DNA of 63,898 nt, filler included, from Fonticula-like sp. SCN 57-25 (GCA_001724245.1; 9 parts of 9 records of this genome joined end to end with filler, not necessarily neighbours in it); one strand, 5' to 3'; shown: positions 3 to 58,757, counted from the whole stretch's first letter. Numbers and translations are program-made. Notes: a model not told the origin generated them from the letters alone.

Positions 3-913
3 CTACCCGCCTAATGTCTCGATCACGATGCGGTCGTCCTCGAGGCGAACGCGCACAACGCCCTTGCGCCCCTTGGTCACCTTTTCCTCTAGCGGCAGAA
101 ACATGTCGCCAATGGCCACCATCTCGGCGTCGAATTCCTCTGTAACAAAAATGTTGACGCTCTTGTTCTCGGTGGCGGCCGGCGGTGGTGGCGGCGGCGG
201 CGGCGGGGCGGTCTTGCGCGAGCCCATCGTCGGGTACGCCTCGATCACCGGACGCGGCGGCTTAGGGGCGGCGGCCTTGGGCGCCGTCCCACTGAAGGCG
301 TTGTTGAGCGCCATGCCGGCAAGCGCGCGGCCCTTGAGGCTCCCGTAGATGGTGATGTCGCCGTCGGCAAGCACCTCGCCGCCGGGGTTGACCGAGCCGA
401 TGAGGACGAGATTAGATGAAGAGTGGATCTGCTGACCCGCGCGGACGGTCGCTACGACGACTTTGGTGGCAGGCACGGTCGGCTGAGACACCGGCGAGGA
501 CGCCGAGGCGGACGAGGAGGATCCACCGGGGGGCAGCAGCGCGAGCGATGCCGCAGTTGCCGATGCCTAGAAACACGTTAGACGAGCGGTCACAGGCGAC
601 AAGATCTGCGTACGCGGAGGCCCGCGGGCGCATTGGTGACGCCGACTGGGCGCAGCTTGAGCTGCCGCAGCTCGGCGCTGAGCGAGGCGAGATCGGACGC
701 GGGCATGTCGGGGCAGTCCTCGAGGTCAACCACGACAGGCGAGTCGAGGTAAAACGTCGGCGCCATCGCGACGCGCTTCCTAAGGCCATCGAGAACCGCC
801 GAAAGAGGCTGATCTTTCGACGGCTTTAGGCAGGGAAGAAGAAACGGGCGCGCCGTCAGCGCGCCGGCCCATTGCGAGCGGCCCGCCGAGTACAGCGCCA
901 GACACCGCCTCAT
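3..913 (-). CDS. minC: Septum site-determining protein MinC homolog, about 287 aa, 2 exons (913-614, 566-3), putative mitochondrial presequence
   Basis: Exon 1 gives MinC_N-like LRKRVAMAPTFYLDSPVVVDL...LRPVGV. Exon 2 gives the MinC_C beta-helix VRAGQQIHSSSNLVLIGSVNPGGEVLADGDITIYGSLKGRALAG...IF...AEMVAIG. A 47-nt GTACGC...CTAAC...TAG intron (613-567) joins them in frame. The N-terminus MRRCLALYSAGRSQW is Arg-rich with no acidic residues. Confidence 0.92.
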
Positions 914-998
914 GGGTTGCGAATCGCGCGGTCACTTGGCTCTGCGTTTACAATAAATGATTTGACAGAGGGACCAAAGTGATCTCGCTCAGTTTGCG

Positions 999-2300
999 AT
1001 GTCAGCAGTTCCACCGCATCGACGGACCCTGCTTGTCCGAGTACGCCTTATTCGATCCCTCTCCCGCTGGCACTGACGAATGGCCGCGCACACTAGCATG
1101 TGCCGACAGAAATGGGTGAGGCGGAGGTGACGTCCTTTTTTCGTCATTTCGGAGCCACATTCGTTCGCGTCATGTGCAAGCCGCCGCGACTGGCCCGCCG
1201 CGCCTTTGTGACATTTGATTCGCCGGCCGGGGCGGAGAGCGCGATGCAGCGGCTTCAGGGGTTTGACTTTATGGGACGCAAGCTTGAGGTTGAGTGGGCG
1301 CACGGGCGGCGAGATCAGGTCGACGCGAGCGTGGCGACACCGATCGCCCCTGAGCTCAACGTAACCTACCCGTTCCCGCCACACCTGCGTTACGCGTACC
1401 CGCCGCCATCCCGCGAGATCCTCCACAACATCTCTGCGGCGCTCGTTGCTGTCCCCCGCTTTTACACGCAGGTGCTTCATCTCATGAACAAGATGAACCT
1501 CCCGGCGCCGTTCGGAGCGATGCGCGAGATCCCTCCGACCGAGGAGGACAAGGAGCGCGCCAGGCAGGAGCGGCAAAAGAAGCGCGAAATGGGGCTCGAG
1601 AGCGACGAGTCCGAGCTCGAAAGCGACGACGACGCGCAGCAGAAAAAGGCGACCGCCGCGGCCGCTTTGCCGCACAAGAAGCGGAAAAGGGACGAGCCTG
1701 TGCTTCCCCCTGCGGCGACCGAGCCGCTGCCGAGCGCGCCAATACCCGCGCCCCGCCAGCCTGCCCAGCCGCAGGTCATAAAGATGGCACCTATCCAGTG
1801 GTCGAGCGTGCTGGCCGCGCAGACAAGCAAGGCGGCGCCGGCGGAGCGCCCGCCACCGCCAACGCTCGAAAAGCTGCCGGACGACGGTGCGCCGCATACC
1901 GCTTTCTGTGTTCATACTTATCTTTTGCTCTAGTGCTTCGCATGAACCCCGCCATGAGAGGCTACACGCGGGGCCAGCCGTGCAATGTGCTGTTTGCCAG
2001 GAATGTGCCCCGCGGGCCGGCGGCGCAGGAGCGGCTGGACGCCATCTTTGGGCAGGTCGACGGCTTTCTAGAGGCCAAGCTGCTGACCGACAGGATGAAG
2101 GGCCAAGCTTTCGTAACTTTTGCGAATGCAGAGGGCGCGGGGCAAGCGCTCGACATGCTGCACGGCTCCGTTATCGATGAGCGGCCACTCATTCTGGTAC
2201 GCGATCGCATAAAAAATTCCGTTCTGACACTGTGTCGCAGCAATTCAGCAAGTCTGCGAGCGCCACATTGACAGGCGAGCGGCGAGCGAAACCAAACTGA
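999..2300 (+). CDS. RNPC3: U11/U12 snRNP 65 kDa protein (two RRMs), 4 exons
   Basis: Spliced N-terminus RTLLVR|HVP (intron 1041-1096). Diagnostic YPPPSREILHNISAALVAVPRFYTQVLHLMNKMNLPAPF. Second RRM GQPCNVLFARN...RMKGQAFVTF after intron ~1887-1933. Last intron 2197-2240. Confidence 0.88.
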
Positions 2301-8452: not shown

Positions 8453-11400
8453 ATGGTCTCGCGTCTTCTAACATGTACGCCATCCTCTCTCTTTATAACC
8501 ATATATCTTTCTCTCTTGTATGTTCTTGTTGCTAACATGTTTTACATGGGGCAATGGTAGCCAAGGTCAGCTCGGTCAGGGCGGTGATGCGGATACTGTT
8601 CTTGTCCCGACCGCCCTTCGCTCTTTTACAAACCGTCCAGTCCGCTCGCTCTCGAGCGGCTTTCGCCACTCTGCGCTCGTCGCCGACGACGGCGCATGCT
8701 ACACGTTTGGCAGCAATGATGACGGCGCGCTTGGCCATACCAAGCGCCGCACACGTCCCGAGACAGTCGACTCGCTCGAGGCCTTTTCAATTGAGCAGAT
8801 CGCCGCCGGCAGCCGGCACACGGTGGCGCTCACCAAGGACGGTATGGTCTTTACGTGGGGTGCGTCCGATCGCGGCCAGCTTGGTCTCGGTCTCGACGCG
8901 ATGCTGAACGGCGGCGACGGCGGCAGCGACCACAAGTTTGCGCGCCCGCAGCGCGTCCGCGCGCTTGACGGCGTGCCTGTCGTGCAGGTGGCGACCGGCG
9001 ATAACCACGTGCTTGCGCTCGACACCAGCGGGACCGTGTGGGCGTGGGGCGACAACGCAGAGGGGCAGCTCGGCATCGGCACCTTTGCCGCGTCGCACAG
9101 CCCCGTACACGTCTCGGGCCTGCGCGGCGTGCCCATCGTGCGCGTCGCGTGCGGGTCGGTGCACTCGCTCGCGCTGTCGGCGGGCGGCGACGTGTACGCA
9201 TGGGGCAGCAATCGGTTTGGCCAGATCGCGCAGGGCGACGTGCCCAAGAAGCTTCGGCCAACGTTCATTGAGGGGCTCGAGGGAAAGTGCGTCGTCGACA
9301 TTGCCTGCGGCAGCGAGCACTCGGTCGTGCTAACGTCGGCCGGGCGCGTCGTGTCGTTTGGCGCCGGCAGCAACGGGCAGCTCGGGCACGGCGCCGACCA
9401 GCATGAGGCGCTCCCGCGCACCATCGTCGACCTCATGGGCACTGAGAGCACGCTCATCGCCTGCGGGAGGAGGCACACGCTCGTGTACCAGGAGGCCACG
9501 CGGAGGCTCTACGCCTTTGGCCTCGGCGCTTCGGGGCAGCTCGGCAACGGGCGGCTCAAGAGCTGCAACGCGCCAGAGGCAGTCGTCTTGCCAGAAGGCG
9601 CGCGCGTGACACAAATCTTTGCCGGTGGCGACCAGAGCTTTGCCGTCGTCGAGGCGCCCATGGAGCCCAGTGAGGACGAGCTTGTTACTTCTACTTCTTC
9701 TATCGCCGTGGACGATGTGCTATGTCGCGCGAGGCCACCGACCGGGCCGCACACGCTCAACTACATTACTCCAGACATCCTCGCACAGCTGCTTCAGGGG
9801 CGCACAGACCGCCTTGTTGCGCATCTCTCAAGCGTCTTTTCGTCCGCCGCGTGCCTAAACGCGTCCTTTTTCCCGCCCGCGCACAATGGCGGCCCGTTCT
9901 CGTCTGCCGACGCCGCGCTGCCGATCGATCTGGCGGCCGTGCGCGACGCCTACGCGCTGCTGTGGGGCCACGCAGACTCGGCGGCCTTTGTCACTGCGAT
10001 CGGAAACGCGACGGCCAAGCTCGTGTCGTCTATTTCGACCGAGAGCGTCGTCGTGGCGCGGCCCGACAACGTCCGCTTCTTCCTGATGCTTCTGGAGAAC
10101 CCGCTTTTCCTCGCGCCGGACCGCATGTTTGCCGTTCTCGCCAAGCTCGTGACTGTCCTGGCAGGCCTGCGCGGCGAGCCGCGCGCTACGCTTGGGCGTT
10201 GGCTCGGCGCGGGCGGCGCTCCTTATCTCGGCCGCGCCTTGCAGCTTCTCCAAAACTTTTTGTCGCACGCGCTCAAGCACCCCGACCTCGGCCTGGACCT
10301 CGCCGTCCCCAACTGCACGGCTGTCATCGCGTGGCTGCACTCGGTCAATGCCGCGCACCAGCACCCGCTGCCCGTCCGCGCCTTTTACAACCCGACCATC
10401 ACGACGCACGTCGATGTCATCACCGACTTTGACAATACGATGCGCAAGACAAACATTTTCACGTTTTCGTCGATGCCGTTCCTGCTCGAGCCCGCGGTGA
10501 AAAAGCTCTTTTTCGAAATTGCCGTACACGCGCGCATGGAGGCGCTGGCGCAGGATGCCGTAGTGGCCGGCCTTCAGGGCAAAGAGCATGCGCGGCCCTA
10601 CCTCGAACTGCGGATCCGCCGCGAGCACATCATGCAAGACGCGCGCGACCAGATTGAGCAGACGCGCCAGAACTCTGACCTTCACAAGGCGCTCATTGTG
10701 CGCTTCCAGGACGAGGAGGCGCAGGACGACGGCGGTGTCCGCAAAGAATTCTTCCACCTTCTCTTCAAGGGCCTTACCGACCCCGCCTCGGGCTTTTTCT
10801 CGTACGATCCCGAGACGCGCCTGCTCTGGTTTGGCGATGGGCACACGGGCGACGCGCGCTCGTGGGAGCTGATCGGGACGTACCTCGGCCTCGCCGTACA
10901 GAACGGCTGCCTCGTCGACGTGCACCTCCCGACCGTCTTTTACAGCAAGCTGCTCGCGCGCGGCGACACGACCTTTGGCATTGAGGACCTTGCCGAGCTC
11001 CAGCCCGCCGTCCACCGCAGCCTGCGCTTTATCCTCGACGAGACGGACGAGGAGACCATCGCAAACCTCGGCCTCGTATTTGAGTACGACACGACTGTCG
11101 CGGGCGAGCCGCGCGCCGTCCCGCTCAAGCCGAATGGCGGCGACATCCCCGTCACCGTCCACAACCGCGCCGAGTACGTGCGGCTCGTCGTGCAGCACCT
11201 GCTCGTCGGATCGGTCGCCGCCATGTTTGACCCGCTCAGGAAAGGCTTTTTGCGCGTGTGCGACGGGCCGACGCTGCGCATCTTTGACCCGACCGAGGTT
11301 GAGCTGCTCGTCTGCGGCGTCCCGACGTTCCAGTTCCACGAGCTCGAGGGCATCGCGCAGTACGGCGAGGGGTACAGCAAGGACCACCCGACGATAAAGC

Positions 11401-11660
11401 TCTTTTGGCAGGCGTTCCACGCGCTGCCGACGGAGCTCAAGCGAAAGTTTTTGCTGTTTGTGTCGGGGTCGGACCGCGTGCCGCTCGGCGGGTGGAAGTC
11501 ATTCAGGCTTGTCATTCAGAGGACGGGCGACCCGGCGGCGCTGCCGGCGGCGCACACGTGCTTCAACATTCTCGACCTGCCAGAGTACACGAGCCTCGAT
11601 GAGCTACAGAGCAAGCTCGTGTACGCGCTGCAAAACACTGAGGGGTTCGGGCTCGTCTAG
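8453..11660 (+). CDS. Small HERC-type E3 ubiquitin ligase (RCC1-repeat propeller + HECT domain), HERC3/4-like
   Basis: Repeated WG-N--GQLG RCC1 units. HECT motifs DDGGVRKEFF, FLLFVSGSDRVP, LPAAHTCFNILDLP and C-terminal EGFGLV. Start is either 8453 with a non-canonical intron or 8520. Confidence 0.92.
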
Positions 11661-22801: not shown

Positions 22802-24084
22802 TTACCTCAAGCTTCCACTGTACCGCCTCCGCGCCCGCTCAATCCTGAGGTTGTGCGGCATGAACGGCGGCGTCTGCGGGAGCGGCAGGGCCGACCCCTG
22901 GCTGCCCATCATGGACATTTGCTGCATTCCCTGCGGCCCCATCATCTGGATCTGCGGCGCCGACAGCGACGTCGACGGCGGCGCCCACGCCGGCAGCGGC
23001 AGGCCAAAGCCGCCGCCGCCGCTGACGTACACCTCGGCCGACCGCGAGCGGTTGTGCTGCGGCCGCACGGGGCTCGGCAGGCTCATCAGGGACGGCGACT
23101 GCGACACGGGCGACCCCGTCGGGCTTCCCAGCGGCACGCCATAGGGAAGGCCCTGCCACGGCGGCGGGCCGAATCCGTTCATCTGGCTGCCTGGCGACGG
23201 GTCCCGCCCGCCGGGCGACTCGAGCTGCTGGCGCATCTTTCGCTCCGCCGCTTTGCGTCGCCGGCTCGAGCTGAGCGTGCCGCTCTGCGTCGGGTCGATC
23301 GTCCAGTAGTTGCCTTTCCCGAGACCAATACGCGGAATCTTGACAAAGTAGTCATGCAAAGATAAATTGTGTCGAATCGCATTCTGAAAAGGGGCGCGCA
23401 ACGCATCAGCAACAAAGGGCAAACAAGATGGGGCGCGCGAACCTTCCAGTTAATATTGCAGTATCTGTAGTACACGTGGTTCTCCTGAATCCAGTCGTAA
23501 ATTTCGCTTAATAAGAGGCGACGCGTCGGCGACGACAGGATCGCGCTCTCGATGAGGGAGCTGTACGAATTCGGCGGCTTGAAAACCGCGGTACCGCCAG
23601 GCACCTCAACAGAGTCTCTGCACGCGCGCGTATTAGTAAATTAAGCCCTCAAAGAGAGGCGCCGTACGGTAAACTGCGCTCATCCGTGAACGAGCTGGCC
23701 GCGCCGCTCGGCGATACGCTCCGCGAGGGAAACGGCGACTCTACGGCGGGCGTCAGCGCGGAGCGGCAAACCAGGCGCCGTCGTACCGTCGTCCGAATCT
23801 GTGACTGGCGTCGGCGTCTGCGCCCCGTCGACCATATTGGCCATCGAGTGCGATCGCCTAATTGGCATTGCATCGTCGTTGTGCGAAGCCGTGACGACGA
23901 CAGTGATGGGCGGCGTCGAGAGCGGCCGTAATGTCGGGCTTGATTCGCTCACGAGGATGCGCTGGAGCGACATTCGCTCCTGCACCTGCGCCGCCACCGC
24001 GTCGTCCTGCACGTACCTCCCCTGCGCGGCGTGCACCGAGGGATCGGCCATCGCGGCCGCCCCTCCTTGTCGCCCCGACTCCAT
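22802..24084 (-). CDS. Forkhead-box transcription factor, at least 3 exons
   Basis: KPPNSYSSLIESAILSSPTRRLLLSEIYDWI...WK|NAIRHNLSLHDYFVKIPR...GKGNYWTID. The 3' end is uncertain (possible GTAAG donor at about 22805). Confidence 0.92.
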
Positions 24085-35732: not shown

Positions 35733-36237
35733 CGCGGTCGTGAGGGGCGCGTGCGGAGTCACAGTTGTTGCCGTCGGTGGCCTGATGTTGCGTTAATATC
35801 CCAAAAAGGAAATATCAATCCCTTCAAAAGGGAATTGCAATCACTTGTGTTTGTCTGCGGCCATACGTACCCGTCTCGCTCACGAAAATCAAGCGCGTGC
35901 TGGTCGAGTCAGTACAGCGGAGGGTGACCACGCCGGAATACTCGATGCTGCGGGCAATATTTTTTTTTTCGATATTTTGAGTATGCCTCGGCGTGGGTAC
36001 ACAGGGCTGTCCAACATACACTGCCACTGCACTGTCCAGTACTATTATTTTGCCGCTGCTTCTAAACTGTGCAGTGCATTATCAAGCCGCGGTACTCTTT
36101 CCCAACATACATAAAGTTTGCAGTTTGCGATTTGCAANNNNNNNNNNNNNNNNNNNNNNNNNNNNNNNNNNNNNNNNNNNNTTAATTAATTAANNNNNNN
36201 NNNNNNNNNNNNNNNNNNNNNNNNNNNNNNNNNNNNN

Positions 36238-36587: not shown

Positions 36588-37453
36588 CCAGGGCCAGTAA
36601 GAAAAGAGCGGGACGCGAGTGTGGCGCGCCGCGGGCGCAGGCGAGATTGGTAGGACTCTGATTGGACGGCGAGTATGAAAGGGACATTTTGATTGGTCAA
36701 TTTTCAATTTTATGCTCGGCGCTTTTATTCAATTGCTTCTTTTCCCGTCCCGCTTGCGGCGCTGTCCACGTTCGTTTTTTTTATTCCTCAAGATAAATCC
36801 TGCATCCCAATTCGGCGTTTGACTCTTTCCTTTTCCTTCTTGCTCGGTTTTTTATCCTTTGGCTCTCTGACCCCATTGCCTTTTCGACTTTGGCTTTCGC
36901 GTTCTTTTGTGGTCGTTGTTTTCTTCTTCTTCTTCTTCTTTCTTTCACCTGTTCAAAGTGAGTGGCAGAGTAGGAAAATGGATTGACGTCCTTTACGCGC
37001 AATGCTCTTTAATGGAATGGGAAAAGTTTTAATTTTTGCAAATTGACCACAAAAAGCACTAAAAAGCAAATAAGCAAAAGTAAGGTGCAAACTGAGCACA
37101 CATTGCAGAACATGTTGCTATAGATTATGGCACAGCTGAGCACAGACTGGGCTGTGAACATGGGCATGAATTGCAGAGATATTATGCTCGTATCATGTTA
37201 TGTGGCCTAACTGAGCACAAACTAAACACATTTTAGCATTTCATATGATGCAAACTGGACAAATTGCATTGAAATTCTTATGGGCAGCCGAAATTACTAT
37301 GGAAATTGCATTGTCGAATATTGCATTGTCATAATGAGCGACGCAAGGCGCGGTTGAAAAAGAGCCATGTCTCGTTTGCTGCAATTCAGCAGAGAGGCAA
37401 AGCAAAGAAAAGAGACACTAACAGAGAAAGCAGAGTGGACATCAGCGGCAAGA

Positions 37454-38950
37454 TCATGTGTGCAAGATGCGATCCTTGCCTTGATCATTACACGTGCTGC
37501 TGCTGCTGGGCGGCGTAGGCGGACGTGGCGGCCTGGCCGATGGCCGCGCGGCCGGCGTCGCTCGTGGCGGCGTCCGTGGCCGCCTGCGAGAGCTCGGCCT
37601 TGGCCTTTTCGTTGCCGCCCTTGGAGCGGTAGAAGCGGAGCACCTGTAAGGAAATGCACAGTCAGCATGGTAAGGGGATGCGATGAGGGACGCACGGCCT
37701 GGAACTGCCAGACGTGGTAGATCGAGACGAGCGTCCACGCAATGGAGGCGATGAGCATGACAATGAACGAGCCGAGGTTGGTGCCGACGGCGGTGAACGC
37801 GTTGATGTAGCCGCTGGGATCACGCGTCAGGGTCATCGTTGATCACAAGTGCACAGTGAAATAGACACAAAGTATATACACAATACATCATGTTCATATA
37901 TAATTATGCACAACATAATATCAAATATACGCAATTTTCGTGCTTTTCCTACATGTTTCCCTTTCCATTCCAAATATAATTGTGTTCGTACGCAGATCCG
38001 CTGTTGGGGATGCCGATCGTCATGACGATACTAAAGATGACGTGGAATCCAAAGCAGAACAAAAAGAGGAAATACGACATGGAGCGGTCACGCTGCACGG
38101 CGCGGTACAGGGGACGGTACCAGAAAACGAAAAAGATGATCGGACCGAGGATGCCGAGCGCAATCGAGATGCCAAAGTCGGTGCCACTATTTGGCGGGAA
38201 ACGCAAAATCAGAAAAATCAGGTAAAATCAGGAATAAACAGGTAAAATCAGAGAAAATCAGAGACAAATCAGAAGGTGCGGCGGCGTGGAGTTGGCCAAG
38301 GTTGACTGGCGGGCTGACGCGGCCGCACAGGAGAAAAAAGAGAGAAAAACAGACATAAAAAGCAAGGAAAAGACGCGTACCCGGTGTTGGTTCCGATAAG
38401 AAGGGCCAGCGTGCCGATAAAGTTGAGGCCCATGACGATCGTTGAGCCTATTGCACCGGTGCAAGGTGAGCCCAGGATCCCCTTCCGCAATAAAAGATCG
38501 TACAGATCCAGCCAAAGTAGACGCGCTTGACGAGAAGCTGCCCGTCCTCCGGGATATCCTCCTTGATATTGTGGTAGATGATCGGCCTGCACTTGGGCCA
38601 GTTGGGCGTGCGGTCAGCCACGAGGCCGAGCTCCGCCTGCAGATCACCGACCTTGCGCTCGCGGTACTCCAACTGCTGCTCGCGGCGCTCCAGCTCGCGC
38701 TCGCGGCGGTTCAGTTCATCTTCGCGATCAGAGATCTGAAATGGGAAAGAAGGATGGCGAGAGATTAGCACAATAAGAAGTGGGATCCAGCGCGCGACGC
38801 ACGTAGGCATTGGTGCCGGCCTAAAGTGGGCGAAAATGGAAAAAGATACAAAAGTGGTATGGTTAAAAAGAGGCGAAAATGGGAAAGAAAGAGCGCAGGT
38901 GTGCCAATGAAAGCGCAGCGCACCTCTTCGTCGCGGAATGGGTTCGACAT
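37454..38950 (-). CDS. SCAMP: Secretory carrier membrane protein (SCAMP), multi-exon
   Basis: N-terminal NPF (MSNPF), coiled coil ELNRRERELERRE, PNWP...IIYHNIKEDIP, FWYRPLYRA and four TM segments. Stop position approximate. Confidence 0.88.
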
Positions 38951-39191
38951 GGCGCCGTCGGTCAGGGCAAAATAGCACTACCGAGAAGAGCGGTCGACGA
39001 CTAACAGTTCACCCAGGAGTCTGGGGCTGATTTTAGGGATGACACCGAAATCTGGAAATGGACCAATCACATTGCGAGGTCAGCCACAGGTCAGCACAGC
39101 AGGCTACAGTCCTGCCGCGCCAAGGAAGAAAAGGTCTCTATCCACTTTTCGTTGAACGCGTCCACAGCTGCAGGTCGTGCATCCGTGACTA

Positions 39192-43816: not shown

Positions 43817-44468
43817 GGCGGGTAGCGTTCAAAAAAACAAATGAGCCCGCGAATCTGTCAGTCGCGCACCTCGTCGCAATTTCGAATTTCCCGCCAAACA
43901 TGAGACGTTTGATTGGATAGGCAGATCGACGTCGCTGATTGGTCCCATCAATTTGACGTCACATTTTCTTTTGTTTTCAGTACTTCACCCTCGCACACGC
44001 GCTGGCGGGGCTGTTCTTTTTGTTGGGACATTGAAGTGGTGCTTGCTGAGGTCGGCTCGATTCAGGTTGCTTCCTTTTGCGGGGTTGGCGCGATCGTGAG
44101 GCCGAATTTTTTGCTTTGGCCAGATCGAGATTTCTTTAGAGAACCTCGTCGCCATCTCTCGATTCCTTCTGGTCAAGGAAGGTGCGTGCAGTGTGGCTCG
44201 TGGGTGTGGAGCACTTGCTTATTGCAGTCGGGACTAATTCCTTTCGTTCTCGCTTAGGTTGAAGCTAGCGTACTAGATTGCGCTGAGATTGGCCGGCTTC
44301 ACGCTTCCCTTAGCGCATCACCGCTTTTACGTGTTGTCAGCATCGCATTTGCAACAGCTTGCGATCTCGGACCGACTTACCGCAAACAGGCTTCTGGTAG
44401 CTTCTGTGTTAGCCGAAGCTTTCTTTTCAAGGAGTTATTTTTAGAGTTGCCGAGTATTTTCCTACTAC

Positions 44469-46664
44469 ATGGCTGATCAATCGACCTTGCCTGACGCGGA
44501 GGAGCTCCAGCAGGATGTTCGTCTTGACGCAGATGAAGCGGCGGATGTCTCGGTAAGCGGGCAGGTTGAAAAGCGGAAGAAAAAGAAGAAGGTAGAGGGT
44601 GCCTCCGACGATAGTATGGCTGCCGACTCGGCGTCTCCTCAAAAGACACGCCGGAAATCCAAATCGAAGGATTCTGTTGAATCTACAGGTGCGGTTGAGG
44701 CAGTTTGTGTTTTTGGTCAAACTCACCAGTTGCTCTCAGATGCTCCTCTCGGGGAAAAGAAAAAGAAGAAGCGCGCCACAAAGCACGCGGACGGAGATGA
44801 CCAGCCAGATGCGGTCAAGACCAAAAAGAAAAAGTCGTCGTCTAAGCGCTCGGTAGCGCAGTCAGAGACCGAGGGGAGCCAGCAGGATTCGAATTTAGAT
44901 ACTTCGATGGAGTCGTCCGTCTCGGATCAGGCGTCGTCGTCACACATCGTAGAGGCGTCGTCCTCGGACTCTCTACTCCACCACGGGACAGAGGACGAAG
45001 CCAACGACACCGACTCTGGTAGCGAGGACGAGGATGCCGAGCCGTCGGCTTCCAACGACGCGCCTGAAGAGGAGAGTGCTACAGTTGACGAGGTTGCTTC
45101 CACCCCAGCACAGAATCTGGACCACAGTGCAAGCCCGCAGGCCGTTGAGGCTGTTGCCAATGTGGTGGTGTCTCCCGATACGAATGGTTTTGGAATCGCT
45201 ACCGACGCGACAGCGGAGGAGCGCCTTGCGCAATTGCTAGCCGGCTCGCGACTGGACCCTGCGCACACGTTTGAGCTTGCGCCCCTTGCGACTGAGGCGT
45301 ACGTTTCACCGCTTGTGCTCGAGCCCCTCGAGCTCCTTCATTCGTCCTCGGAGAGTTCGTCGAGCGACGACGACGATTGCGACAAGGATGGAGATGAGGA
45401 TGAAGAGTATTATGATGCAGATCAAACGGCAGATGGGCAGGAGGGCGGTGCCGACGCCACCAGTTCTAATGCTGCTGCGCGTGCAATGAAGCGCCCTTCA
45501 CCTCTTGGCCCGCTGATGCAGTCTCTTCAATCGAGTCTCGAATCGCCTGCTGTCCTGACGCCAGACACCGAGTTTACGCAGCAGCTTAACGATGGCTGTG
45601 ACGAGGTTGAAATTACGCCGACCTCGGAGCTCGGCACGCACACCGAACTTCCCGAGCTTCCGCCGGATTACCTCCCGACGATGGACATCATTGCTTATGC
45701 TCCTGACGACGACGATGATGACGATGAAGACGAAGCGGCGCCAGTGTGCCCGGACGACGCGGCTGCGGAGGGCGGCGACGCTCAGCCTGCTGGCATCGTT
45801 GATCCGGCGCTCGTACCTAGGAGAGCAATCGACAAGTCGGGAGGCAAGATGAAGCAGACATCGTACGGTGGTTCTGTCAAGAATATGCGCTCCTGGGCCA
45901 AAGGCGCGCGTGCCGAGCTGGAAGCTGAAGAGGCTGCTCGCCCGAGCAGCCCCAGGTTCACGCAGTTGGTTGAAGACGCGGGCACCTTTTCACGCAAGCT
46001 TAGCCAGCGGTTCCTGAACCAGTTTAGCAAGCTGCGCCGGGGGTCTGAATCGGGTTCTTCCTCTTCATTGGCGCCGTCGTCGCAATCGACCGACCAGTCG
46101 TACATTACCTTTGCCCCGACCCCGCCTCGCAAGACCGGCCCGAGCTCGTTCTTCCAGCCTTCGAGCGTCGCGCTCGAAGTCGGCTCGTCGACCGGCCGCA
46201 GCATGTCGAGCAACACGAACCTGGCTCTCCTCGGGTCGCCCTCCTTCCAGGGATCTTCCATTGCCATGCACGCCGGCGAGGAAACCGACCCCGCGCTCGT
46301 CCGCGCGTTCAGCCTGCCCGACCTCCCCTCAAACACTAGCACTCCCGAAACTGCAGTCGCTCCTTTGCGGCGGCTTCCTGGGACTCCGATTCTCAAAAAG
46401 TCGACGTCGCATCCCGACCCGCGCGACTCTACAGGGACGGTGCGTCCGTTACGCATGCCGGGCGACAAGCGCGTTATTTTGGTCAAGTTCCACGAGAGTG
46501 TCACTGTACGGCGCACGTGGGCGAAGCGGGACTATGACCGCAAGGGCGAGGTAACGTGGCGGTTGACGACGGATCAGGCGATGTCCATCAGGAATGAGCT
46601 TAACGAGTTCAAGGCAACAATGGATATTCACATAGACAGTAGGCAGAACACGCACTACTACTAA
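44469..46664 (+). CDS. Largely disordered protein with a C-terminal Bni4/Phactr-type PP1-binding module
   Basis: ILVKFHESVTVRRTW...DYDRKG...LTTDQAMSIRNELNEFKATMDIHIDSRQNTHYY* matches the RVxF / DYDR / ELNEFK..M.VH..SR tail. Intronless, 731 aa. Confidence 0.8.
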   Translation: MADQSTLPDAEELQQDVRLDADEAADVSVSGQVEKRKKKKKVEGASDDSMAADSASPQKTRRKSKSKDSVESTGAVEAVCVFGQTHQLLSDAPLGEKKKKKRATKHADGDDQPDAVKTKKKKSSSKRSVAQSETEGSQQDSNLDTSMESSVSDQASSSHIVEASSSDSLLHHGTEDEANDTDSGSEDEDAEPSASNDAPEEESATVDEVASTPAQNLDHSASPQAVEAVANVVVSPDTNGFGIATDATAEERLAQLLAGSRLDPAHTFELAPLATEAYVSPLVLEPLELLHSSSESSSSDDDDCDKDGDEDEEYYDADQTADGQEGGADATSSNAAARAMKRPSPLGPLMQSLQSSLESPAVLTPDTEFTQQLNDGCDEVEITPTSELGTHTELPELPPDYLPTMDIIAYAPDDDDDDDEDEAAPVCPDDAAAEGGDAQPAGIVDPALVPRRAIDKSGGKMKQTSYGGSVKNMRSWAKGARAELEAEEAARPSSPRFTQLVEDAGTFSRKLSQRFLNQFSKLRRGSESGSSSSLAPSSQSTDQSYITFAPTPPRKTGPSSFFQPSSVALEVGSSTGRSMSSNTNLALLGSPSFQGSSIAMHAGEETDPALVRAFSLPDLPSNTSTPETAVAPLRRLPGTPILKKSTSHPDPRDSTGTVRPLRMPGDKRVILVKFHESVTVRRTWAKRDYDRKGEVTWRLTTDQAMSIRNELNEFKATMDIHIDSRQNTHYY

Positions 46665-53353: not shown

Positions 53354-53534
53354 GGCGGCGGGAGGAATGCTAAAATCGTCTCACGAGTGGTAAATCGAGG
53401 CCTAATATTTGAGACGAATTCCCTTTTCACATGCGAAATCGATCAACGAGGCCGTGTGCTATACACGCTATATCTGGCGGTGGGGCCGGGGGATCCCAGT
53501 TCTCTTGCGCCGTTTTCTTTCCCGCGCCAGACCA

Positions 53535-56500
53535 ATGCTGCGCGTCGTGGGAGCGCGTGCGGGCCTCGGCTCGGCGGCGGCAGCGTCGCGCGTCGGTGTG
53601 GCCGCGCCGCGTGCCGCATCGCGCGTGCCGCATGTGCGGCCGGCGGGCTATGACACGTACGTGGGGGCGCGTGCCATGTGCGCCACGTTTCTCCACATGC
53701 GCGCGTTTGCGACATCCCGCGCCAACATGGCGAGTGAGGTGAAGCGCGCGCCGCCGGTGCCGGCCAAGCGCGTGCTCGTGCTCGGATCGGGCGGCCTCTC
53801 GATCGGCCAGGCGGGCGAGTTTGACTATTCTGGCTCGCAGGCGATCAAGGCCCTCAAGGAGGAGAGCATCGAGACGATCCTCGTAAACCCCAACATTGCC
53901 ACGATCCAGACGGGCCGCGATCTCGCCGACCGCGTCTACTTTGTGCCGGTGACGCCCGAGTATGTGTCGTATGTGATTGAGCGCGAGCGCCCCGACGGCA
54001 TCCTGCTCACCTTTGGCGGCCAAACCGCGCTCAACTGCGGCGTCAAGCTGCACGAGGCCGGCGTTCTGGAGCGCAACGGCGTGCGCGTGCTGGGCACGCC
54101 CGTCAAGACGCTCGTCGTGAGCGAGGACCGCGAGCTCTTTAACGCCGCCCTCTCCGAGATCAACATTCCTTTCGCGCGCTCGACGGCCGTGTCGACCGTG
54201 CCCGCCGCGCTCGCCGCCGCGCAAGAGATCGGCTACCCCGTGATTGTGCGCTCGGCCTTTGCGCTTGGCGGCCTTGGCTCGGGCTTTGCGAACGACGCCG
54301 ACGAGCTTCAGCAGCTTGCCACGCGGTCGCTCTCGCTTTCGCCGCAGATCCTGGTCGAGCGCTCGATGAAGGGCTGGAAGGAGGTCGAGTACGAGGTCGT
54401 GCGCGACGCCGACGACAACTGCATTACGGTTTGCAACATGGAAAACTTTGACCCGCTCGGCATCCACACGGGCGACTCGATCGTCGTTGCGCCGTCGCAG
54501 ACGCTCACCGACGCCGAGTACCACATGCTCCGCTCGGCCGCCATCAAGATCGTGCGCCACGTCGGCGTTGTCGGTGAGTGCAATGTGCAGTACGCGCTCA
54601 ACCCCAACAGCATGGAGTACGTCGTGATCGAGATGAACGCGCGTCTTTCTCGCAGCAGCGCGCTCGCCTCCAAGGCGACCGGCTACCCCCTCGCCTTTGT
54701 TGCTGCCAAGCTCGCGCTCGGCTTTTCGCTGCCCGAGCTTCCCAACGCCGTCACCAAGGAGACCAAGGCCTTTTTCGAGCCGAGCCTCGACTATATCGTG
54801 TGCAAGATCCCGCGCTGGGACCTGAAAAAGTTCCAGCACGTCGGCCGCGACATTGGCTCGGCGATGAAGAGCGTCGGCGAGGTGATGGCCATCGGCCGCA
54901 CCTTTGAGGAGGCGCTCCAAAAGGCCGTCCGCATGGTCGACCCGTCGCTCACCGGCTTCCAGTCCAAGCCGTTTGACGACCTTGACACTGCGCTTTCGCG
55001 CCCCACCGACGAGCGCCTGTTTGCCGTCGGCGAGGCGATGCTCGACAAGGGCTACTCGGTCGACCGCGTCTGGGAGCTCACCAAGATTGACAAGTGGTTC
55101 CTGCACAAGCTCAAGAACATTGCCGACACGCGCGCCGAGCTCAAGGCGTACACGAGCATTTCGGCCGTCCCCGCCGATCTTCTGCGCCGCGCCAAGAAGC
55201 AGGGCTTTTCTGACAAGCAGGTCGCCATGCTCGTCGGCGGCACGGAAGATGACGCGCGCGCCGCCCGCAAGGCGCACGGCATCACGCCGTTTGTCAAGCA
55301 GATTGACACGCTCGCGGCAGAGTTCCCCGCCGCCACAAACTATCTGTACACGACCTACAACGCGTCGACTGACGACGTCGAGTTTGACCAGGCGGGCGTC
55401 ATGGTGCTCGGCAGCGGCGTGTACCGCATCGGCTCCAGCGTCGAGTTTGACTGGTGCGCCGTCACGGCGAGCCGGACGCTCCGCTCGATTGGAAAGAAGA
55501 CCATCATGCTAAACTACAACCCCGAGACTGTTTCGACCGACTTTGACGAGTGCGACAGGCTCTACTTTGACGAGCTGTCCATGGAGCGCGTCATGGATAT
55601 CTATGAAAAGGAGGGCGCCGAGGGCGTTGTCGTGTCGGTCGGTGGCCAGATTCCGCAAAACATTTGCCTGCCGCTGTCAAAGAGGGGAGTCAACGTGCTG
55701 GGCACGAGCCCCGTGTCTGTTGACATGGCCGAGGACAGATTCAAGTTTTCTCAAATTCTTGACCGGATTGGCGTTGATCAGCCCGCGTGGAAGGAGCTCA
55801 CTGACCCCGCCTCGGCCGCCGCCTTTGCCGCCGACGTCGGCTACCCCGTCCTCGTCCGCCCCTCCTACGTCCTCTCTGGCGCCGCCATGAATGTCGCCTT
55901 TTCCCCCTCTGAGCTCGCCGACTACCTCACGCGCGCCGCCGACGTCTCGCCCGAGCACCCCGTCGTGATCACAAAGTTCATCGAAGGCGCCAAGGAAGTC
56001 GACATTGACGCCGTCGCGAGCAACGGCTCTCTTGTGACGTACGCCGTCTCCGAGCACGTCGAGCAGGCCGGCGTCCACTCTGGCGACGCCACGCTCGTCC
56101 TTCCCTCCCGCGAGATGCCGCCGGCCGTGCTTGCGCGCCTCAAGGACATTACCTCGCGCGTCGCCTCTGCCTTTGAGATTTCCGGCCCGTTCAACATGCA
56201 GGTGATCTGGGACGGCGACGCACTCAAGGTCATCGAGTGCAACCTGCGCGCGTCGCGCAGCTTCCCGTTCGTGTCAAAGGTGCTCGGCACCAACTTTATC
56301 GACCTCGCCACGCGCGCCATTGTCGGCGCGCCGGTCGAGCCGGTCGACGTCATGGAGGAGGAGCGCGACTACCAGGCCATCAAGGTGTCGCAGTTTTCGT
56401 TCACGCGGCTGAGCGGCGCCGACCCGCTGCTGGGCGTCGAGATGGCGAGCACGGGCGAGGTCGCGTGCTTTGGCAAGGACAAGCACGAGGCGTTCCTGCT

Positions 56501-57046
56501 GAGCTTGCTGTCGGTGGCCAACTTTAGGCTGCCGGAGAAGAGCGTCGCGGTGGCGGTGGACGAGAGGACGGATATGGCGCTCGCGAGGGATGTCGTGGAG
56601 AGGCTGAGGGCGTGCGGGCATGAGATTGTGGCCGAGAAGACGTCGGCGGAGAGGCTCGGGAAAGAGGGAGTGAGCGTGAGGGCGGTGGATATTTCGAGTG
56701 ACCGTAGAAAGTCTCGTCAGACATTCATGTACGCAGAAAAAAAAATGGAAAATGGGAAAGTTAAAATTTTGGTCATTTTGGTGCAATTTTGGTCGTTTTA
56801 GGTCGTTTTTGTGTAATTTTGGTGTAAAATTGGTCTTTTTGGTGTGATTTTGGTCATTTTTTGCAACTTTTTTTGTGACACTCTATCATGATTTTTTTCA
56901 CTTTCCATTCTTTCCCTCGCCTTTACTGACAATTCTCCTAGTGATAGTGAGGTTGACATGATCATTTCTCTGTGCGGCAAGCGGCCGTCGGGCGTGGATG
57001 ACCCCAACTATGTGATGCGCCGCTCGGCCGTCGACTTTGGCATCCC
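53535..57046 (+). CDS. CPA2: Carbamoyl-phosphate synthase large chain, arginine-specific type, with mitochondrial presequence, 3'-truncated
   Basis: [60 protein letters not shown] and [10 protein letters not shown]. There is no glutaminase domain upstream, only an Arg/Ala-rich leader. Intron from about 56729 to 56948. Confidence 0.93.
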
Positions 57047-57146: not shown

Positions 57147-58757
57147 CCGCGTACCTTGACGTTTTGCATGTCACGGATCGCCACGTGGGCAGTCACCGAA
57201 TCGACAGGCGCGTTGTCATCAAGAATCGACTGAAGTCTCGCATACGAAACACTCTCCATATCCATCTTGTTTTCCCGCGCAAACTGCTCTGCGGCTTCAA
57301 ACTCTTTACGACGAACAAGATGAATGAAGCGCTGCACGGGCGACGTCTCTGAAACGCTGCGAACAAACAGCTCTGGCGCGGCGGCGGCGTCCTCGGCGTC
57401 CTTTACAAGCTCAAGGAAACGAATAGGGTTCATCTCGGAAGGCTAAAAATGACGTAAAAGTTAGAAAAAGTCTCACTTTAAAATAGATGTGCCCGTACGA
57501 GCATCTTGCCTGGGACGAGTTCGACGGCGCCCTCGAGCGGAACGGCGTACTCGAGGCGCATGCGCGGCATGCTGTAGACCTCGATTTGCTGCGCGGCGTC
57601 GGCGGCGGCGGTCACGACGACCATGGAAAAGTCGACGGACGACGAGGCATTGGCAGAGGCGCAGGCAAAGTCGCGGACGTGGCCAAGATTGGTCCAGCGG
57701 CGGACAAGCAGCAGACTGCAAAAGTGCAAAAAAAGTGTCAGAAATGTCAGAAAATAGTCAGAAAAATGGCAGAAAAAGCTGTTTTAATAAAGAAAATAAA
57801 ACTTTTCGTACGTTTCAGTGTCCCAGAGCGACATTGTGCCGTCGTCGTGGAGGCTGATGAGCATGCCCGACGTGAGCTCGACCTTGACGACCGGCGCGAG
57901 CTCGCCCATTGCGCGCAGCGAAATACGCGCGCGGCACGACGTGGCGGAGCCGCGGACGGCCCACACGCTCATCAGGCCGAGGTCCTTGGAGACGGTCACG
58001 ACGGTGGCGGCGCCAAAGAGGACGCCGCTCGTGGCGCACGCGACCGACGTGCCGCCAAGCTGAACAGTCTCGATCTTGATCGACTTTTTGACTTGAGCAG
58101 CGAGGGCAGCGTTGCGAGTCGCCACGGCTTGGCGAAGCGTCGCATAGTCGACGCCGTGAACGCGAAGGAGCGTGCCGGTGGCGAGGACGACCATGAGGCT
58201 CTGCTCGGCATCGTGCCTGGAACTATCGTCAACAAAGACCAAAAACAATGAACCAGTGCGCACAGGAGGGAAAGGTGCACGATTGGGCGCGAAAGAAGCG
58301 AGCCGGGGGCCGCGCGGTAAACCTGCTGCGAAAAGACGACCGAGCGCGACGCAATGTCGAAAAAGTGGACGCTGCCGAGCGAATCGCCAACGACAACGAT
58401 CGATCCGTCGGGGCTGCTGGCGGCCGTCGTGACGCGGCAGTCTGAGTGGCGGTCAGTGCGAGGCGGCCAACAAAACAAAATACGCACCAAAGTTGATAGT
58501 GGCCAGGTGGCGCGTGCATGATGCGTCCAGCAGGTGGAGCTGGTTGTCGACAATGATGCAGAGGCCCGTTGAGGAGCTCACGGCGGCAAACTTTGCCTGC
58601 TCGGCCGAATCGCCATCCGTCTCGGTCATGAGCCTAACAAGAGTCTCTAGGCGATACACAGAGGAAGCGGACGCGGATGCGCCCCCTTTGCTGCGCGCAG
58701 GGTCCATCCGCACCGTCTCATTCTGAGCGCCCAGATCAACAGACCAGCTGCGGGCCA
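57147..58757 (-). CDS. KNTC1: Kinetochore protein Rod/KNTC1, N-terminal beta-propeller region, 3'-truncated
   Basis: VYRLETL, IVVVGDSLGSVHF and VSETSPVQRFIHLVRRKEFEAAEQFARENKMDMESV resemble the Rod PxxRxxxLxxxxxFxxAExFA motif. Confidence 0.7.

Follow-up and report, generated by a model that had tools for sequence, protein, structure and literature searches.

The window analysed here, the whole stretch of 63,898 nucleotides with filler included, carries at positions 3-913, on the minus strand, a nuclear-type two-exon gene that encodes a MinC protein of 287 amino acids. We are highly confident that this gene is a real MinC of the mitochondrial type. On balance, our analysis favours, by a modest degree, a functional nuclear gene for mitochondrial-type MinC in an uncultured, GC-rich eukaryote that the one informative marker places with the Fungi (Holomycota). 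MinC of this kind is already known, and the window gene is a further member whose interest rests on its host. It is probably, not certainly, the first MinC to come from an opisthokont allied with Fungi.

FtsZ and the Min proteins of mitochondria are a textbook case of bacterial machinery that persists in scattered protists and whose place in animals and fungi has been taken by dynamin-based fission. Mitochondrial Min systems were reportedly described by Leger and colleagues in 2015. In the passages of the literature cited here, mitochondrial FtsZ is recorded in various protists, some of which retain a Min system (PMC8321541), and Andalucia and Stygiella are listed with FtsZ together with MinCDE (PMC7050145, PMC4989108). 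The corresponding passages describe metazoan mitochondria as being without FtsZ (PMC8027123), and state that 'certain organisms from all supergroups' still have the ancestral complex (PMC5377515). The bacterial Min mechanism, and the plastid Min system as bacterial Z-ring positioning retained in an organelle, are outlined in an excerpt of a further source (PMC13650779). Our searches of the main text of full-text articles turned up no opisthokont with a Min protein, which is no proof of absence.

Results

A two-exon MinC gene

Exon 1 (913..614, minus strand) encodes 100 amino acids (residues 1-100), comprising a short Arg-rich N terminus and the MinC N-terminal domain, and begins at an ATG (913..911, minus strand) that has an in-frame stop seven codons upstream. 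Exon 2 (566..6, minus strand) encodes 187 amino acids (residues 101-287), a Ser/Ala-rich linker followed by the C-terminal beta-helix domain, and is closed by a TAG stop codon (5..3, minus strand). Between the exons, we read a spliceosomal intron of 47 nt from the sequence (613..567, minus strand), in phase 0 and of the form GTACGC...TCTAAC...TAG, so placed that the protein junction runs from '...TNAPAGLR' to 'ASATAASLALLP...'. The two exons lie in different reading frames, the frame of exon 1 ending with a stop at 590, and a TAG lies immediately 5′ of exon 2. Because the frames differ and this TAG abuts exon 2, a splice or a frameshift is required to join them; given the same TAG and the stop at 590, removal of 613..567 is the only way to do so. 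The GC content of the intron is 0.53, compared with 0.67-0.68 in the exons. Splicing is thus predicted from the sequence; the contigs obtained from four sequencing runs are all of DNA type, carry no exon joints and are neutral as to splicing and expression. Scored against a custom HMM built from 13 full-length MinCs, the joined exons gave 161 bits in a single match that crosses the splice junction (HMM positions 20-200, residues 24-188); with the difference in frame, this bears out the proposal of the first-pass annotation that both MinC domains are joined across a 47-nt intron.

The domains were also recovered separately. Pfam MinC_C (PF03775; cut-off 33.2 bits) matches exon 2 with a score of 77.9 bits (E=6.8e-22), in two stretches that are divided by a Pro/Ala-rich insert of ~46 residues occupying a beta-helix loop (156..293, minus strand). 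MinC_N (PF05209) scores 25.7 bits in exon 1, slightly below its cut-off of 27.3 (E=1.2e-5), and alongside this sub-cut-off score the custom full-length HMM aligns the N-terminal domain colinearly. With the exons scored separately, TIGR01222 gave 21.9 bits for exon 1 and 89.1 bits for exon 2, its equivalog cut-off of 95.25 applying to a whole protein.

AF2 models of the two exon products, built on alignments of MinCs, reached a pLDDT of 85.0 for exon 1 and 81.4 for exon 2, with the insert at 55-67, that is, at low confidence. When these models were compared with solved structures using Foldseek, both matches of the exon 1 model at E≤0.001 were MinC N-domains (3GHF, 4L1C), and all eight matches of the exon 2 model at the same threshold were MinC C-domains (including 6RIQ, 4V02, 5XDM and 1HF2), among them the MinC-MinD complexes 6RIQ and 4V02. 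A search of the ESM Atlas with MinC returned generic MinC clusters only, all below 0.9.

Within the C-terminal domain, an RAGQ motif (432..443, minus strand) is the counterpart of the RSGQ of bacterial MinC in a 44-row alignment (A4), in which the R and G columns are invariant and Q is present in at least 90% of rows. The E. coli literature assigns the RSGQ-type motif of MinC a part in MinD binding. All invariant columns of this alignment, including the R and G of RAGQ, are kept by the window protein. The first strand of the window MinC follows [YF]-x-x-P-x-L, a pattern common to eukaryotic MinCs and present in few bacterial rows, and the Gly of the bacterial 'LKG' first-strand motif is Ala here, as it is in some other rows. 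The loop that holds the Pro/Ala-rich insert also holds inserts in P0128, P0150, P0171, P0176 and P0178, all eukaryote-like MinCs in the alignment. In both fold and conserved residues, the window protein is a MinC.

The first-pass annotation had also described an Arg-rich presequence. Its composition stands, with four Arg and no acidic residue in the N-terminal 23 residues (MRRCLALYSAGRSQWAGALTARP; 845..913, minus strand), as would suit a putative mitochondrial targeting signal. Its length and amphipathicity lend it less weight: at ~20 residues the N terminus is no longer than that of many bacterial MinCs (alignment A3), and the hydrophobic moment of 0.36 is modest. Mitochondrial targeting through this short basic N terminus is best called putative.

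MinC is native to the host genome

The gene belongs to the genome in which it lies, as its shared splice donor, GC3, GC-poorer intron and eukaryotic flanks show. A divergent intergenic region of 85 bp (914..998) separates the MinC ATG from the ATG (999) of a two-RRM snRNP-type gene (999-2280, plus strand), in which three short introns were read by eye (1041-1096, about 1885-1933 and 2197-2240). Two of these three introns (1041-1096 and 2197-2240) open with the GTACGC donor of the MinC intron, in agreement with the earlier claim that MinC carries this genome's own splice signals. The best solved relatives of the two-RRM protein are U1A, U2B'', RBM41 and RBM40/RNPC3, all at weak scores. MinC had been described as lying 85 bp head-to-head with RNPC3; the gap and the divergent orientation are as described, and the name RNPC3 is plausible for the neighbour. 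RPL17 and a trifunctional C1-THF synthase, with three domains detected, follow on the same contig, where both had been reported. The GC3 of MinC (0.81) is close to that of the CPA2-like gene discussed below (0.85).

On the other side of MinC, contig L001 from an independent assembly overlaps positions 1-780 and runs ~990 nt past the left edge of the window. The exons in this extension (L001:781-1772) are convergent to MinC and, as judged by eye, presumably encode the C-terminal part of the catalytic subunit of DNA polymerase delta, including a Cys-rich zinc module. The window derives from a metagenome, and its best-matching run is a bioreactor sample that contains 0.91 of the sampled words. 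Run X1 includes a 634-nt contig that covers 295-928.

The window and L001 differ at 8 positions in 780 nt. Six of these differences are silent third-position changes, and the other two are replacements, both inside the Pro/Ala-rich disordered insert. Both haplotypes or strains are present in run X1, where the variant bases co-occur, and one of them is that of contig L001. Because 6/8 changes are silent and both replacements fall in the disordered insert, the comparison indicates purifying selection on a working MinC gene.

Elsewhere, the window contains HERC-like, kinase, forkhead, dynein LIC, trehalase, HDAC, LSM and SYF2 genes, together with SCAMP, KNTC1-like, P450, malonyl-CoA decarboxylase and CPA2-type genes. 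A solitary 5S rRNA gene (35853-35956, plus strand; Rfam, 44.3 bits) is surrounded by protein-coding genes, and is therefore without linkage to an rDNA unit here.

MinC groups with eukaryotic homologues

A protein search with the window MinC returned 2760 matches at E≤1e-3, and at E≤1e-30 only the query itself. The closest relatives in this search are a fragment, P0127 (about 58% identity), and then P0004; many of the top matches are long and low-complexity, and eukaryotic in appearance. A profile search identified P0157 as a protein of Achlya hypogyna. In the 120 rows listed from this search, the named eukaryotes are oomycetes or Chrysoparadoxa only, followed by gammaproteobacteria; fungi, animals and amoebozoans are absent from the named rows, the profile being oomycete-biased and most of the rows nameless. 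When 185,579 species genomes were scanned, 47 MinC loci were recovered, mostly from Gammaproteobacteria, with best-segment identities of 27-66%, the higher values extending over ~50 residues only.

For phylogenetic analysis, the eukaryotic side was represented by the window, L002 (see below), P0127, 8 named eukaryotes and 16 eukaryote-like proteins judged by eye. To these were added 25 'unknown' representatives, the 47 loci at no more than two rows per genus, 3 named bacterial proteins, and 30 loci drawn from 151 evenly sampled Pseudomonadota genomes (43/151 with MinC_C). The quick tree comprised 111 rows, of which 25 bacterial rows were then dropped for a careful tree of 86 rows and 244 columns under LG+G4. 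Since a constrained search gave a likelihood 44.9 higher, the quick search was sub-optimal; the quick tree was set aside and the careful tree used instead.

In the careful tree, the window MinC pairs with P0127 at 100/98 (UFBoot/SH-aLRT), inside a 29-row group with UFBoot 91 and SH-aLRT 87. This group holds all 8 named eukaryotes, all 16 eukaryote-like proteins, L002, 2 of the 25 unknown representatives and none of the 34 bacterial rows, and support for the proteobacterial side is 97/88, in a bacterial sample that is mostly Pseudomonadota and carries no class labels within that phylum. The tree therefore places the window MinC, with moderate support, within a eukaryotic MinC clade. A recent bacterial transfer is unlikely, because the protein groups with every named eukaryote and with none of the bacterial rows; the nesting in a recent bacterial clade that the first-pass annotation had raised as an alternative does not appear.

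A second uncultured, GC-rich eukaryote (contig GC 0.65-0.67) carries MinC at L002:3315-4335, and also in L003, encoding P0004. Its N- and C-domains lie in different frames, and on L002 MOB1-like and serpin-like genes with introns, identified by eye, adjoin it. There, an intron of 97 nt (GTACGA...CAG) joins '...IANATPAQS' to 'AAAAELGLP...', and both this intron and that of the window MinC are in phase 0 and at the same place within ~1 residue. The homologous intron and the shared [YF]-x-x-P-x-L first strand argue for an old nuclear MinC gene rather than separate recent transfers. Over the core, the L002 protein is 67% identical to the window MinC, with a GTACG donor at the homologous intron, and differs from it in being without the Pro-rich insert. 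P0127 is 56-61% identical to the window MinC in the A2, A4 and tree alignments and is among its nearest relatives. The organisms behind L002/L003 and P0127 are distinct from that of the window, and the L002/L003 gene hints that nuclear MinC extends across a broader, unsampled group.

Placement of the host

The first-pass annotation had regarded the host as apparently an opisthokont, citing a fungal-like uL22 and forkhead, Bni4-type and CPA2 genes; of these signs, uL22, forkhead and CPA2 proved to be of unequal value. Against solved ribosomes, the plant, animal and fungal chains of uL22 all score ~208-231 bits, and we rejected it as a host marker. The forkhead domain is present, as an exon encoding its C-terminal half (22805-23449, minus strand; E=1.9e-10). 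Forkhead is described as restricted to opisthokonts in the cited part of an older paper (PMC3493443), and as older than the amoebozoan-opisthokont split in that of another (PMC9828451). With the latter origin, it narrows the host to Amorphea only and does not mark opisthokonts alone.

The CPA2-like carbamoyl-phosphate synthase large subunit (53406-56801, plus strand) is more informative. It is a stand-alone protein whose Arg/Ala-rich N terminus is of the kind usual in mitochondrial presequences. A tblastn search of the whole window for a glutaminase domain detected none (best E=0.065). Among its best 120 relatives, the named rows are fungal at 62-73% identity, except for Albugo candida and the EukProt entry 'Opistho-2', which we take to be a holozoan. 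Both of these exceptions are fused proteins with a glutaminase domain, and every named unfused protein among the 120 is fungal. The closest named relatives among the matches listed are early-diverging fungi at ~70%, with none above 73%.

In a quick tree of 47 of the best 120 matches, the window CPA2 is sister to all sampled fungi. A careful tree of 22 of the 120 unites the window with Fungi at UFBoot 100 and SH-aLRT 99, and inside it the window sequence, those of chytrids and those of all remaining fungi branch as an unordered trichotomy. An AU test, whose hypothesis was framed after the first tree had already been inspected, rejects a grouping of Fungi and Opistho-2 that excludes the window (p=0.0002). 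The tree has two non-fungal outgroups, one of them long-branched, and takes fused and unfused proteins to be orthologous. CPA2 identity to the outgroups is 64-68%, not below identity to many fungi, and the alignment offers no discriminating indels besides the missing glutaminase domain. The CPA2-type gene thus keeps its value as a fungal sign, as a single gene, and of the opisthokont host originally proposed this is the part that stands. Taken together, we consider a host within Holomycota, the fungal side of the opisthokonts, to be reasonably probable from these sequence comparisons, another amorphean unlikely, and anything else very improbable.

Other genes in the window bear less directly on placement. 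The gene content is protist-like in appearance, and includes a HERC-like RCC1+HECT ligase in a single 1053-aa ORF (8499-11660, plus strand), exons resembling the N terminus of KNTC1/Rod (57787-58577, minus strand) and SCAMP exons (37300-39008, minus strand). To our knowledge, these three genes are missing from most Dikarya, and they hint at a gene-rich, early-branching host. Intronless ORFs of 1000-1131 aa occur in the window, which disfavours intron-dense amoebae such as Acanthamoeba. A 739-aa ORF (44445-46664, plus strand) has no Pfam family and an Atlas model of pLDDT 0.39; its nearest ESM Atlas clusters carry fungal labels at 0.85-0.88, one of them 'putative Bni4p', and serve as leads only. 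The P450 is CYP4-like against the PDB and gave no useful test of taxon. For comparison, the cited part of a preprint on Nuclearia thermophila gives a GC content of 44%, unlike that of the window contig, and makes no mention of Min.

Discussion

We infer the import, partners and function of the protein from its resemblance to known Min systems. MinC would be imported into the mitochondrial matrix through its short basic N terminus and would dimerise through the C-terminal beta-helix. Its RAGQ-bearing face would then dock on membrane-bound MinD-ATP, and the N-domain would keep mitochondrial FtsZ from assembling anywhere but at the division site, mid-organelle. MinE would set the pattern. Such a scheme mirrors bacteria and the mitochondrial Min systems reportedly described by Leger and colleagues in 2015. 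Given the MinC gene, a working MinCDE/FtsZ system is likely.

Several other explanations must be set against a functional mitochondrial-type MinC in a host allied with Fungi. That the gene reflects bacterial contamination or an assembly chimera might be suspected of any window derived from a metagenome. Here, the chance is negligible, as the first-pass annotation had also held: the intron has host-type signals, GC3 matches that of host genes, the adjoining genes (85 bp away upstream, immediately next downstream) are eukaryotic, and the same arrangement recurs in the L001 and X1 contigs. A true MinC could also have become an orphan, either a relic left after the loss of MinD, MinE and FtsZ or an old transfer, with another role or none in division. 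The weak N-terminal signal would fit such a history, and the large insert and the first-strand Gly-to-Ala change suggest divergence. Against it stand the dominance of silent changes between strains (6/8), the retention of every invariant column including the RAGQ face, and the confident folding of both domains in the models. Moreover, the related L002 has retained its MinC together with this intron, and the eukaryotes with whose MinCs the protein groups reportedly keep whole Min systems, according to the 2015 work of Leger and colleagues. We judge an orphan gene improbable.

The most serious competitor accepts a genuine mitochondrial MinC and changes the host, to a non-opisthokont amorphean or other protist such as an amoebozoan, apusomonad or breviate; since lineages of this kind are known or expected to have Min, the finding would then be ordinary. 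Such a host would have in its favour the protist-like gene content, a forkhead domain compatible with Amoebozoa too, an uninformative uL22 and a fungal placement that comes from a single gene. It would also suit the published mitochondrial Min systems, which in the passages cited are all in protists (PMC8321541, PMC7050145, PMC4989108). The CPA2 evidence runs the other way: the gene groups with Fungi at 100/99, the AU test rejects Fungi plus the holozoan excluding the window (p=0.0002), and the protein is unfused as in fungi, the named unfused proteins among the best 120 all being fungal. The intronless ORFs of 1000-1131 aa likewise misfit intron-dense amoebae such as Acanthamoeba. A non-opisthokont host is thus a minority possibility, and a functional mitochondrial-type MinC in a relative of Fungi is the reading that we prefer.

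A broader proposal can be put forward tentatively, at somewhat short of even chances: a deep-branching lineage of opisthokonts allied with Fungi, as yet unsampled, may have kept the alphaproteobacterial FtsZ/MinCDE machinery for mitochondrial division, within a wider group that takes in P0127 and L002/L003. If this is true, the opisthokont ancestor still had FtsZ/MinCDE, and several independent losses followed, in the relatives of animals and within Holomycota. With a holomycotan host, the bacterial divisome would have been lost in several later events and not ahead of the opisthokont ancestor, and the organism would offer a means of studying the hand-over from FtsZ/Min to dynamin beside the fungi. 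If the CPA2 placement with Fungi holds, the opisthokont side would have its first Min component in this gene, which is notable; if the host is an amoebozoan or similar, the gene is one more member of the known MinC distribution, as expected.

Comparison with known systems sets out what is shared and what is particular to the window gene. Bacterial MinCs (E. coli, P. aeruginosa, A. aeolicus) have the same two folds, with TM scores by target of 0.77-0.86 for the C-domain and 0.62-0.64 for the N-domain, and share with it the R-x-G-Q motif and all invariant columns. The window MinC departs from them in its spliceosomal intron, in a disordered insert of 46 residues and in reading RAGQ where they read RSGQ, and it lies outside any minCDE operon and off the bacterial side of the tree. 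The plastid Min proteins MinD1 and MinE1 are likewise an organelle-retained system of Z-ring positioning, but their cyanobacterial origin and plastid location are unlike those of the window MinC, and land plants have lost MinC, with ARC3 in its place. Nothing in the window points to a plastid, and we rejected a plastid-type reading. The oomycete and stramenopile MinCs (P0157 of Achlya hypogyna, Saprolegnia, Phytophthora, Chrysoparadoxa) offer the closest parallel: like the window MinC, they are nuclear, have both domains, fall in the same clade, and share the P-containing first strand and inserts in the same C-domain loop. Stramenopile MinC is reportedly located in mitochondria, according to the 2015 study of Leger and colleagues. 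These proteins are, however, only 33-37% identical to the exon 2 product (alignments A1 and A4) and have longer N-terminal extensions, and their hosts differ from that of the window, whose CPA2 groups with Fungi, apart from the stramenopile sequence.
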